A stretch of 64,000 nt of DNA. Origin: a virus. Of the stretch, positions 1 through 5,000 are shown one piece after another (position 1 is the stretch's first letter; each line of letters opens with the position of its first letter). The stretch is taken from positions 1-64,000 of IMG/VR virus record IMGVR_UViG_3300020021_000004; one strand, 5' to 3'. The position numbers were made by a program, and so were the translations under genes. The notes under the pieces were generated by a model. The model was not told the DNA's origin. It saw nothing but the letters and a program-made list of their open reading frames with translations, and searched no databases.

Positions 1-2066
1 CCCAAGACGGCCGCGGGCCCACCAAGTAGGATCTGCGGAGCCAACAGTGAGAGGGCCAGCCCTGCCGTTAAGTTCATGGCCAGACCCGAGGTGATCGACA
101 TCGCTCCTGCTCCTGCGGCCAATGACATCGCACCCGCGCCCGTCGAGAGCGTGACAGCCCCCGCTCCTGTCGTGAACGACATGGCGCCCGCCCCAACTGC
201 CACCGAGAAGGCCCCCGCGGGAGCGTTGAAGCTAATGGCGCCCGCCAGAGCACTGAAGCTAATGGCGCCCGCCAGGACCGTCTGAGTGAGCCCGCCCGCC
301 AGGATGGTGGAGATCTTACCCCCGAGGGCGATGTTCTCTAAAACCTGCAAGGCGAAGTTGTACTGCGATTTCCCGCTCACCATCTGGTTGAACTCACCGT
401 AGTTACCCGAGAAGCCTGAGGTGGCGTTCTGATTCAAACGGTCAGCTTGCTGCTGATACTGACCACTCACGATCGTTTGCTTGGACCCTTCGATGACCTT
501 GATCTCAGCGCCCTTGATGTTCGACTGCTTGGTGCCGTTGACCTCAATACTATGCGCCAAATCGTCTTCGTTGGGGTTACCCTCATAGCTGACCTTAGTG
601 GCCGAGTGGAACCGCATCGTGATCGCGTTACCCTGAGCGTCGCGACCGATGTCTAAGTGGGCACCACCCTCCAACGTGAGGTGGGCAGAGATCCTCTCCG
701 GGTTCGAAGCTCCAATGAACATCTTGAGCGCACCCGCAAGGCTCATCTCTGCTGAGATCCCCTTGGAGCCACTCGGATAGTCCTCTTGAACGGAAGCCGG
801 GATGTTGACGAACAGCTTGCCTTGCTTCGAGACAGCCGCCACGAAAGCATTCTCCCCTACGCTTCGGGGCGGGCGGATTCGAAACAAGAACGCCCCCGCT
901 GCCGTCACAGCTTCGAGATCCGGGCTCGTAGGCTGACGGTTGATCTCCTCCAGGGTGAACTTACCGATGGATCTCGACAGAAAGTCTTGGAAGAGCCGAG
1001 GCTTCAAAAGCTGTGCGTACTGACGCTGTCCTCGCGTCGAAGTGGTATCGTTACCCACGAGGGTGCCCATCACCCTCTCGATGTAAGGTGGGCGACGATC
1101 CATCGTGAAGCCGTCGATTTCTTCGATGACCTCTTGGCTCAAGTCACTGGTGTGACTCATCTCCAAACGGTCCTCTACGAAGGCGTCAGCGATGCTGTCC
1201 GTCTCTTCAATGCTGACGCCCGGAGAGGTGGGCGGGTAGTGGACCCGGCGTCCATTCGAGTACGTGACGGGCGGGAAGTCCGCCACGTCATTGAAAAGAT
1301 CAAGGAGCTGTCCCGAGGTGTTGGCAAACTTCGCCTCAGTGCCCGCTCCTACGCCCGGACCCGCTGCTTGAAGCTCATCGACGCCATAGTAATTGTCGCT
1401 CACCGTCTTCAGGGTCTTGCCGTCAGCCCCTAAGATGTCAGGCGGCAAGTAGGCGGCACCACGACGAATGGGTCCCGAGATCTTCTTCAGGCCAGCATTG
1501 CTCTCGACTCGATGAATCGTTTGGGTGATGAACGTTCGATCGGCGTCCCTCATCTCCAGGGTGTCACCCGCTCGGTTGACCATCCGGATGTCTTTGGACA
1601 TCACGAACTCAGCGCCCGCGGCCGACATGCCGCCAACGTCACCCGGTCGAAGGTTCAGCCGCTTGTACCGTTGAACGGCACCGAAAGTGTTGGCGTAAAG
1701 CTCCGCCTCGTCGGCACTGATCTCAGACGGGTCCGACACCGAAAAGGGGTCGAACCGAAGCCCGCTTCGATTGCCCGTCGGGATGTAGCCAAGGATCACC
1801 GCGTCGTAGAGCTGCTTGTGAATACGACGGTACCCGACGATCACCAACGAACCCACCTCAGGTACGCCGCCCCAGAAACTCCGGGGACCCGCCATGCTTT
1901 GCGTCAGGTCGATCTCGAAACGGTCACCTCCGCCGGTGAGGACCTTTAGATCGGCCTTAAGGTTTACCTCATCGACTCGCGTGACAATGCCGACCTTGAG
2001 CCCTGCGATGTCGCTCTGGTCTACGAAGTCCTTGCCCGGAGTAGTTCCAACGGGATGCTTGGGCGT
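1..2066 (-). CDS. Baseplate central spike protein (T4 gp5/VgrG C-terminal-like), 3' end truncated by window; start non-canonical
   Basis: Not in the ORF track because it runs off the edge. The frame is open from TAA at 2100-2102 to base 1. N-terminal OB-fold-like KVGIVTRVDEVNLKADLKV...GGVPEVGSLVIVGY; C-terminal beta-helix repeats AGAISFSAL/AGAMSFTTG. First ATG is only at 1895; ACG at 2066 is a candidate start. Confidence 0.8.
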
Positions 2067-2083
2067 GGACTTCGTAGACCAGA
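2015..2083. repeat. Perfect 17-bp inverted repeat at the hub/spike gene junction
   Basis: TCTGGTCTACGAAGTCC (2015-2031) and GGACTTCGTAGACCAGA (2067-2083), 35-nt spacer. Confidence 0.95.
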
Positions 2084-5000
2084 CGGCGGAAACTCCTGAT
2101 TAAGCTGTCCGAGCTTCGTGGTGTCGCTGGCGATCTTCTGGTTCGCCTTGTCGATGTCGGCATTGAGGTTGTTGATGCGGTCCTGCGTGGTCCCCCCAGG
2201 GCCCACGACAACACTCCCCGTCGCCAGAGCGGTCTCCAAGTCTTTTTTCTGAGCATCAAGTCGAACAAGGCTGGCCTGGTTTTGGTTGATCTCACCCTGA
2301 AGCTGTGTTCGTTGTGCACTCGCTTTGAGGCTGTCACCGAAGCTGCTCCACGCTTGACTGGCGGAGTTGAGGGCCGTCTTAGCCTGAATAGCTAAAGCCG
2401 CGGGATCCCCACCCGCAGCTCGGTTGGGGGTCGAATAGGGCGGGGCGAAAGGACTCGTCGTATCCGCAGCCGGCGGCCCAAAGAGATTCGGAGCAGGGTT
2501 TGAAGCCGCAATAGGGATCAACTCCCCTCGGATCTCTCGTTCGTACTGCTGGTGGGGTCCGTCGAGCGCCTTGTACAGGTTGGCGAGGTAGGTATCCACC
2601 TTGCTCACCAGATCCCCGTTCGTGAGCGTTGGAGTGACGGGGCCCACCTCAAGGGAAGCTCCGCCCGACAGTTGATTCTGGACCTCTGCCTGCAAGTCAG
2701 GAGAGGCGCCCTGCAAGGCGGTGTTGACAGCGTTCGCTAGAGTGTTCTGGCCCAACGCAATCAAAGGATCCGCCTTCGCATTCGCGATGAGAGTAGCGGC
2801 TTCGCTTGTCAGGCTTTCATCCGATGTCGTCGGCTTAAGGATTTGAACCTGGTAGCCGATGTTGAGGAACGCGAGATCCGCCCGGCCAGTGATGCACTGG
2901 CAGTCCGCGTCCGCGGTCGAGCCTGAAAGCACGCTCTCCCGGACCTTCATCTCAGCCAACGTGAGAGCCCGTGAAAGCTGTGAAGCTTCAACGTCGGGAG
3001 GCGCCACAGCACCCTGACGTTCTTTCGAACTCAATGTAGCGGAAGTAACGAAGGTCGTGCCCGTGCGGGTGAACTCAGGTTTCTTCGTGTCGGGGTTGAT
3101 GACCGCCGCCGTCTGAAGGTCTTCCGGATTCAAGTGCGCTACAGCGTCCGCGGGATTAGCGTATGACGAAGTTATCGAGGTCAACCCTTGAGACTGTGCC
3201 GTGAGACTTTCGAAGAGACCTCCCGACAAGGCCAGCTGTACCCCGATATCCGCCTGACCCTGGTTCTTGTTGACGAGAGCCCCGTCTCGAAGATAGACCC
3301 CTCGACCGTAGCGATGGTGCCCGATTAGTTCGAAGCCCCGTTCGTCCGACACAGGACGGATCATACCGCTCTGTCCGCTGAACTTGACCACATCTTGGTT
3401 GAAGGTGATGTTCGCAGCCGGCAAGATCAGCATCTCCAGAATGACCTGTGAGGTGTCGTGCAGGTACGTGTAGACGCCCGCACTGTTGATGCCGTAGCTG
3501 TAGCGATTGTTGAGATGCTTGTTCCGAAGGTCGTCTTGGGGCTGGTTGGTGAAGTTGGATTGCTGAATATCGCTCAGCTCTTTTTTGGCTGCGTTGTTAC
3601 GAGCCGTAACAGTGCTTTGAGCTACGCGAGGAGCGTTCTCACCCTTCTGACCCGAAGCCGCCGCAAGTTGATCCGGAGTTGCCGCCATGGGGCGCGTGTA
3701 CGCCATCACAACGTTGGGGTAGCCCACGATACGGCCCGTCTTTGGATGCCTCAAGATGAGGGGCTCGTAAGGGTCCACGTCTCCAGGATTCGTCGGAGCG
3801 TTGATGGGCGGGATCTCCGCTGCATCCCCGACCGTGGCTTTGAACCGTCCGCCCGAAGCAAGCTGGCGAGCCGTCAGCGTCGAAGCCTGCCCTGCCGCCA
3901 AAGGTCCGCCCCCGGTATTGACTGTCGTGTCACCCTTGTAACTCGTCAGCTCCAAAGTACCGATGCCTCGAGGAGCAATAAACTTTCCTCGCTTGGCCGT
4001 AAGGGACAGCGACGTCTGGGCTCGACCGCCGTAGCTGATGTTGTGACTGATGCCCTGGATGTACCAGATTTGATCCAGGGGAGCGAGATAGATGGGAAAC
4101 CCTAGACGAAGCTCCGGACGACAAGGAATGCTCACCGTGCCGCGATTGCGCTTGGAGTTGTAACGGTCCAGCAAGTCCAGCCCCGTATAGAACATGAGCT
4201 GGGGGTTTGACATGAACTCGGAATTGTAGGTCCGAGATCGCCAGCCGTACTTGCGGAGCAAGTGGTAGTCCGTGACCGATGTGTAGGGCGTTGCTTCTTC
4301 AGGCATGCCGTAGTCAACAGCACCGCCGAAGTTACCCTGAAGTTGGATCTGCGTAACAACCTCAGACTCCGAATCCGAGAGGTCCCAGTCGATGATGTCG
4401 ATGTCCTGGATCCAACTGATGGGCTTGTTGCTCAGGACGTCGAGGTTGTAGAACGGAGGCTTGAAGACAATGTCCCCCGTCACATCCATATAAAATTCAA
4501 AGCCGATCGATTCCTTGGCGGCGTTCGCTAGTTCGAGCTTGGTCTGGTACTCCGTCTGCCAGAAGTTTACCTGACCGGCTTGGCTGAACTGCGTACGGAA
4601 AGCTGTCACCCCAGGATCAGTAGGGTCGAAGTCCATCTGAGCCGTAGCGTTGCCGTTCGCTTGTCGCACTAGCTGACTGGCGAACGGGTTCTTGAAGCTG
4701 CCCTTACCGGCTTGATAGGCCGCTTGGATGACGTCGCCACGCACGGCCGTCCCTGACGTTCCGTACAGCATGAGGTTTGAGCGGATCTTCGTGAACCGCT
4801 GGCTCCAGTACTGCATGATGTCGCCCAAGGCCGTGCGGAACGTGCTCTTGAAAGCGGGGTTCTTCTCGTTGACAAGGCTTGTAAGGGACCCGGTGCCCAC
4901 CACCACGTCGCCGAAGGACTGCTGAGCGAGCGTCCAAATGATGTCGTAAGGGTTCATGCCGAAGAACACGTTCCCGAAGATGCTTCGACCCTGCTGCCCC

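Follow-up and report, generated by a model that had tools for sequence, protein, structure and literature searches.

The first 64,000 nucleotides of the IMG/VR virus record IMGVR_UViG_3300020021_000004, hereafter called the window, raise the question how a phage tail gene can be expressed if it lacks a start codon. The complete record comprises 86,248 bases and is rated 18% complete. Close to its beginning, two genes on the minus strand meet: a long open reading frame (ORF), labelled 'hub' by an earlier note on this DNA, and a downstream gene labelled spike. The spike gene seems to have no canonical start codon, and a perfect 17-bp hairpin lies across the junction. Four explanations had been offered in the earlier note: a programmed -1 frameshift yielding a VgrG-like hub-spike fusion, initiation at an ACG codon or after C-to-U editing, an invertible switch of 35 bp, and a template-switch or assembly artefact. 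Our analysis supports the last of these. With a probability of about 0.88, the hairpin of the record is a 17-nt reverse-complement overwrite that is private to this record, and the spike gene itself is ordinary, with no recoding involved.

In the record as written, the spike frame is open from a TAA at 2102-2100 on the minus strand, and the first ATG, GTG or TTG within it is the ATG at 1895, just as the earlier note had stated. The upstream ORF (2021-5473, minus strand, 1150 amino acids) ends at a TAG at 2023-2021. It overlaps the spike frame by 76 nt (2099-2024), and the two frames do stand in the -1 relation that had been reported. Across the junction lies a perfect inverted repeat of 17 bp (2083-2067 and 2031-2015), whose arms enclose a 35-nt spacer; in a repeat search it extended to 23 nt at 91%. 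It begins 6 nt past the hub codons GAG TTT and its 3' arm contains the hub TAG, so this part of the earlier description proved accurate as well. Within the 64-kb window, three inverted pairs of at least 14 nt within 150 nt were found, and the pair at the junction is the only long perfect one. Shuffling the local 200 nt gave repeats of 5-14 bp and never reached 17 bp (0 of 300 shuffles), and the folding energy of the junction RNA (-53.4 kcal/mol, z = -4.77) was equalled in none of 200 shuffles. The inverted repeat is more than a product of chance.

Independent assemblies of the same strain carry a different junction. Five sequencing runs share part of positions 1-6000 of the window, and two of them, X1 and X2, which stem from one soil sample of one study (2018), contain 0.92 and 0.80 of the words sampled there. 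For these runs we compared Logan contigs, that is assembled contigs and not raw reads, over positions 1500-2600 (1.1 kb) at a loose threshold of 80%. Two further runs, X3 and X4 (word shares of 0.08 and 0.07), have no piece on this region and are uninformative either way, and X5 was left out. The flanking pieces of X1 and X2 show no difference to the window. The junction contigs of both runs, which are record 3 of X1 (189 nt, depth 3) and record 7 of X2 (475 nt, covering 1824-2298, depth 4.4), show the same six substitutions, one insertion and one deletion, all of them inside 2067-2083. At the differing sites in this block, all contig depth carries letters other than those of the window, and the hairpin block of the window occurs in no contig of X1 or X2 over 1500-2600. 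If the differences are applied to the window, the length is kept and the resulting 17-mer equals that of a close relative (L003, positions 3936-3952).

This read-supported form restores an ordinary gene junction. It places a TAA in the hub frame at 2083-2081, the real hub stop site, and ATG codons in the spike frame at 2081 and 2075, and the first of these (2081-2079) overlaps the stop codon as TAATG. The 5' arm of the hairpin (2067-2083, minus strand) is the exact reverse complement of 2015-2031 and takes the place of the native hub stop and of the spike starts. While the block of the window is complementary to the 3' arm at 17 of 17 positions, the read-supported block is so at only 7 of 17 and, therefore, no hairpin exists in the read-supported form. 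The 3' arm (2015-2031, minus strand), which served as the source of the copy, is native: it encodes (K)DFVDQ, a conserved stretch at the N-terminus of the spike, its letters are identical in L003 and nearly so in another close relative, L005, and the X1 and X2 contigs show no difference there. The spacer or loop (2032-2066, minus strand) is native spike coding sequence as well, encodes TPKHPVGTTPGK and lies in its native orientation. The final 20 codons of the hub ORF in the record (2083-2024), in contrast, represent reading on through the overwritten block and are not present in relatives.

Similar results were obtained by comparing the junction with that of close relatives, an alignment that the earlier note had called for. 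We used six close IMG/VR loci (L003-L008) with protein identities of 74-90%, of which L003-L006 were aligned by an anchor pattern, while L007 and L008 were read by eye. In all six the hub stop and the spike start overlap, as TAATG (L003, L004, L005 and L008), TGATG (L007) or GTGA (L006), and the hub ends directly after ...NQEFPP (QETP in L007). In a gap-free alignment, both sides of the junction are collinear between the window and L003 and L005, and the 17 nt differ as one block, which reads TAATGCCGATGAGTCGC in L003 versus TCTGGTCTACGAAGTCC in the window. Within this block, only 7 of 17 positions are identical to L003 and L005 and 10 of 17 differ, while the 150-nt flanks are 72-83% identical across both loci (108/151 and 120/150 for L003, 105/151 and 124/150 for L005). 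The junction RNA of L003 and L005 folds no better than shuffled sequences (z = +0.48 and +0.38), compared with -4.77 for the window.

As findings that would speak against its proposals, the earlier note had named an ATG at 2064-2066 or an indel in the reads, or homologous spikes that begin at the equivalent of M1895 together with relatives that lack the hairpin. In substance, such evidence was obtained: the contigs do contain ATG codons and the relatives do lack the hairpin; the position, however, was misjudged, since the ATG codons lie at 2081 and 2075. The same holds for the ACG codon that had been taken as the first codon inside the stem and as the counterpart of a native ATG. An ACG of the record does match a native ATG, but it is located at 2075-2073 (minus strand), inside the 5' arm, and not at 2066-2064; in the read-supported form and in the close relatives this codon is the second in-frame ATG (MPM...). 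Upstream of both, the hub codons CAG GAG contain an AGGAG (2097-2093, minus strand) that precedes the native ATG at 2081 by 11 nt. The record has kept this motif intact, and all six close loci share CAGGAG at the corresponding site. The AGGAG is likely the ribosome-binding site of the spike gene, and the C-terminal residues of the hub may be constrained by this site in the window and in L003-L008. In the working state of the phage, the hub ends with ...NQEFPP-TAA and the spike begins at the TAATG overlap, 11 nt after AGGAG.

With these data one can judge whether the spike is initiated at a non-canonical codon (ACG 2075-2073 or ACG 2066-2064) or following C-to-U editing of the messenger RNA. 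The idea has some appeal, as ACG 2075-2073 stands exactly at the second ATG of the relatives and the AGGAG upstream of it is intact. However, the DNA of the same strain has ATG at both 2081 and 2075, so that a special mode of initiation is not needed, and in the form given by the record this ACG is buried in a 17-bp stem. As to editing, none of the five listed runs is recorded as RNA, in a search that was confined to DNA runs. We thus regard ACG initiation and editing as unnecessary assumptions and as very improbable.

To place the junction in a wider context, the open spike frame (699 amino acids) was used in a protein search, in which 8000 candidates were scored and 406 proteins had E ≤ 0.001. 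The best 120 of these 406 homologues are mostly 716-736 amino acids long and cover 91-99% of the query. The closest Logan relatives, P0001 and P0002, have 91% identity. Sixteen homologues were read individually; they begin with M(P)MSRTPKHPSGTTPGKDFVDQ... or close variants, while the window frame reads ...WSTKSTPKHPVGTTPGKDFVDQSDIAGLKVGIVTRVDEV. Of the 120 homologues, 114 contain an RVDE motif that served as anchor, and 112 of these have it at a distance of 26-38 residues from the N-terminus (mode 34). The two others, with RVDE at residues 5 and 9, are short gene calls. Among the six homologues without an exact RVDE, inspection by eye revealed five with a variant at the usual place and one truncated protein. 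Both the N-termini of the homologues and the spacing of RVDE indicate that the true spike start lies upstream of the methionine at 1895. A start at ATG 2081 puts RVDE 34 residues from the N-terminus by our own count, which is the mode of the homologues.

The same picture emerged from the DNA of a wider set of loci. An alignment of 18 homologues matched 128 stretches; relatives are encoded by 90 of them, and we retained the best 80. The stop of the long upstream ORF was taken as hub stop and the start codon was chosen by a nearest-to-stop rule. A canonical spike start (72 ATG, 4 GTG and 4 TTG) is present in all 80 loci, at a distance of -5 to +78 nt from the hub stop, and 76 of these 80 starts fall into the narrower range of -5 to +16 nt. 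In some loci (L028/L029 and L046/L088) a TTG overlaps the TGA of the hub and is at once followed by an ATG (TTGATG), which makes the start ambiguous; here the rule took the TTG. The longest perfect inverted repeat of the 80 loci (loop of 3-60 nt, -70 to +130 nt of the stop) measures 5-12 bp, compared with 17 in the window. As a control, the same script applied to the window returned the 17-bp repeat and a nearest start 128 nt away, namely ATG 1895. A fused hub-spike gene, recognised by more than 49 open codons of the spike frame ahead of the match, was found in none of the 80 loci, while no search aimed at longer protein forms was made.

These loci bear on the proposal of a programmed -1 ribosomal frameshift that would be stimulated by the hairpin and yield a VgrG-like fusion of hub and spike. 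Programmed -1 frameshifting is known from phage tail genes, for example of the lambda G/GT type, and VgrG is itself a hub-spike fusion. The record resembles such systems in its geometry only: a -1 frame relation, an overlap of 76 nt and a very stable hairpin. However, the overlap at 2099-2024 contains neither an X XXY YYZ heptamer nor a homopolymer of at least four, but only four half-slippery heptamers. The -1 relation is inherited, because the TAATG overlap of the relatives creates it. Furthermore, conservation is lacking, since none of the 80 relatives is fused or without a start and all of them use a canonical one, and the 5' arm of the supposed stimulatory hairpin is missing from all 80 relatives and from the same-strain contigs of both runs, which show an ordinary junction. 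Frameshifting is thus hardly credible here.

The third proposal, an invertible switch or inverton formed by the 35-bp spacer between the 17-bp inverted repeats, fares even worse. The repeats are perfect and, as checked by hand, inverting the spacer would bring TTG and GTG into frame. In its present orientation, however, the spacer already encodes the TPKHPVGTTPGK stretch, which matches the homologues and is kept in them. One of the two arms is not native, and a repeat longer than 12 bp is found in 0 of 80 relatives. In addition, the X1 and X2 contigs agree with the window throughout the spacer (2032-2066), although contigs can miss minor forms. We consider the inverton refuted; among the explanations considered here it has the least credence, close to none.

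What remains is the origin of the block. The overwrite, the native sequence of the same strain and the ordinary junction of every relative examined are shown, while the way in which the overwrite came about is inferred. Positions 2083-2067 were replaced, at unchanged length, by the reverse complement of 2031-2015, 35 nt downstream, thereby erasing the hub TAA, the overlapping spike ATG and the second ATG. Such a replacement is the hallmark of a polymerase that switches template and then returns, in the order 1-4-3-2 of the four-point model, with switch points on the coding strand at 2084 | 2015 -> 2031 | 2066. In this model, a fragment is exchanged for the reverse complement of a neighbouring one, and a perfect hairpin arises in one event (Loytynoja and Goldman, 2017, PMC5453318; Monttinen and Loytynoja, 2022, PMC8794818). 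In a linear alignment such an event shows as a cluster of substitutions and it creates an inverted repeat (PMC5453318, PMC8794818), and perfect stems can result from template-switch events in a single step, as stated in the later paper (PMC8794818). The classic quasi-palindrome model of Ripley is a special case of the four-point model. The junction agrees with a four-point event in that a perfect stem was created, the spacer is unchanged and the order 1-4-3-2 applies; the block is the reverse complement of a nearby fragment (17/17), and a very close sequence differs from the window in the block only. It differs from a Ripley-type quasi-palindrome, since the native block (7/17) had not been close to a perfect repeat. 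It differs from the published template switches as well, because the derived form is present in one database record only, while independent assemblies of the same strain lack it. Consequently, it may not be a phage mutation at all.

The alternative source of such a block is technical. Fold-back (inverted) chimeras arise during library preparation and amplification, and fold-back artefacts arise in assembly as well. The junction resembles them in that a short back-to-front copy of a neighbouring sequence interrupts an otherwise ordinary phage gene in a low-depth metagenome assembly. Fold-back chimeras, however, have one junction, while the block has two and an exactly conserved length, which calls for a return switch or a merging step during assembly. 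A one-junction fold-back chimera alone can be ruled out: by inspection by hand, the letters before the 5' arm are hub sequence and not the reverse complement of the letters after the 3' arm, and for this reason a return switch or a merging step is needed. We also considered, by hand, a deletion of one arm plus spacer (52 nt) or of the whole hairpin (69 nt); neither restores a single frame.

Depth is about 3-5 in both X1 and X2, and the X1 contigs are interrupted on either side of the junction. Thus an error from a single molecule or from a merging step could have reached the consensus. We consider it most likely, and somewhat more probable than a real minority allele, that the block originated in library preparation or assembly at about 3-5x depth. 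Several points weigh against a private overwrite of technical origin. First, contigs drop rare variants and the hairpin form may persist at low frequency in X1 and X2. Second, these two runs are not established as the source library of the record, and their depth is low. Third, a simple one-junction fold-back chimera does not give the two junctions and the exact length of the record form. Fourth, a de Bruijn assembler would not normally create junction words of its own, so that some molecule or read probably carried the block. Finally, with only 7 of 17 positions of the native block complementary to the 3' arm, no classic quasi-palindrome existed beforehand, and the nearest microhomology (GCCC/GGGC, 4 bp) lies 2 nt inside the arms.

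The main competitor is a real template-switch allele that arose in vivo and dominates the source population or library of the record, with the native contigs stemming from a co-existing wild type. Such an allele would be a knock-out or strongly leaky: the hub would read on for 20 codons and little or no spike would be made. The two junction words of the block must have been present in at least one read or molecule, a switch and return with exact conservation of length is what template switching during replication would leave, and contigs cannot exclude a variant. On the other hand, the native form is the only one assembled in the two runs that hold the strain. A search for the strain's junction as a flank-N17-flank pattern, in either form, returned 0 hits in viral_contigs and 0 in metagenome_contigs (the window's own record excluded); it revealed no other record of the strain in these collections, and the derived hairpin form appeared in no second sequencing experiment among the X1 and X2 contigs, viral_contigs and metagenome_contigs. 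Furthermore, the loss of the stop-start junction in front of an essential tail part should be selected against. We regard a dominating real allele as possible, yet rather unlikely. If the hairpin form were a real allele, it would represent a clean natural template-switch mutation that knocks out a stop-start junction of a phage.

One might speculate further that the hairpin form is a real allele of the soil population in which one switch erased the hub stop and both spike ATG codons, and that the spike is still produced through leaky routes. Ribosomes might reinitiate behind the displaced hub stop, start at a near-cognate codon, or on rare occasions shift frame and yield a hub-spike fusion. 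If true, the record would offer a snapshot of a recoding site or of a VgrG-type fusion born in one step. We consider this idea very improbable.

Taking the overwrite as private to the record, we class the anomaly as one of a known kind, either a short template-switch event or a fold-back-type artefact, and do not count it among the real features of the phage. The stop-start overlap of the real junction is commonplace. Junctions of this kind (TAATG, ATGA, GTGA), with translational coupling, join adjacent structural genes of phages; here, the real state of the same strain and of its relatives shares with them the overlap of hub stop and spike start, with AGGAG in the last hub codons. The record should consequently be read with TAATG at 2083-2079, a hub of 1130 amino acids and a spike beginning with MPMSR.... 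The case also calls for caution, as one 17-nt reverse-complement overwrite in a low-depth metagenome contig can mimic a very persuasive picture of recoding, in which the start codon is missing, the frames stand in a -1 relation and a perfect hairpin covers the stop. Aligning the junctions of relatives and consulting independent assemblies of the same strain provides a quick test for such cases.

Read in this way, the spike gene extends from the native ATG at 2081 of the read-supported form to position 3 (minus strand), where it runs off the start of the record, while its full-length homologues mostly comprise 716-736 amino acids. The genes around the junction all lie on the minus strand, in the order of a tape-measure-like ORF of 1133 amino acids, ORFs of 228 and 548 amino acids, the 1150-amino-acid hub and the spike. 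When the spike, the hub and two neighbouring proteins were searched against Pfam, no family was found for spike or hub, and in PHROGs the putative hub matched only a family of unknown function. Sequences of the PDB gave no match to the spike at E up to 1. Residues 516-692 of the spike match the C-terminal profile end of PHROG 694 ('baseplate hub and tail lysozyme', E = 6.1e-8), and it is this C-terminal match from which the label spike is taken here; PF10106 is precomputed for three distant spike homologues. Towards its C-terminus (3-400, minus strand), the spike carries a long run of Ala/Gly-rich repeats of the AGAxS/T type, for example AGAISFSALAGAISFNAPAGAFSVAVGAGAMSF, which is kept in the homologues. 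This run, which matches PHROG 694 at its C-terminal end, resembles a beta-helical needle.

Between the tape-measure-like ORF and the hub, the protein of 548 amino acids (5476-7122, minus strand) carries a Peptidase_M15_4 domain at residues 226-289 (E = 3e-14). By this D-alanyl-D-alanine carboxypeptidase-like domain and its position, it is likely a tail-associated cell-wall hydrolase. The record belongs to a large clade of phages from soil and other environments, and related contigs reach 400-530 kb; lengths among L006/L014, L031, L043, L044, L079 and L082 are, for example, 451,925, 437,331, 416,539, 411,618, 407,634 and 528,957 bases. The record is therefore a fragment of a very large phage. 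Elsewhere in the window, a 16-nt inverted repeat with 94% complementarity and a 5-nt loop lies at 12386-12422, and a 15-nt palindrome at 12615-12632; both could be terminators.

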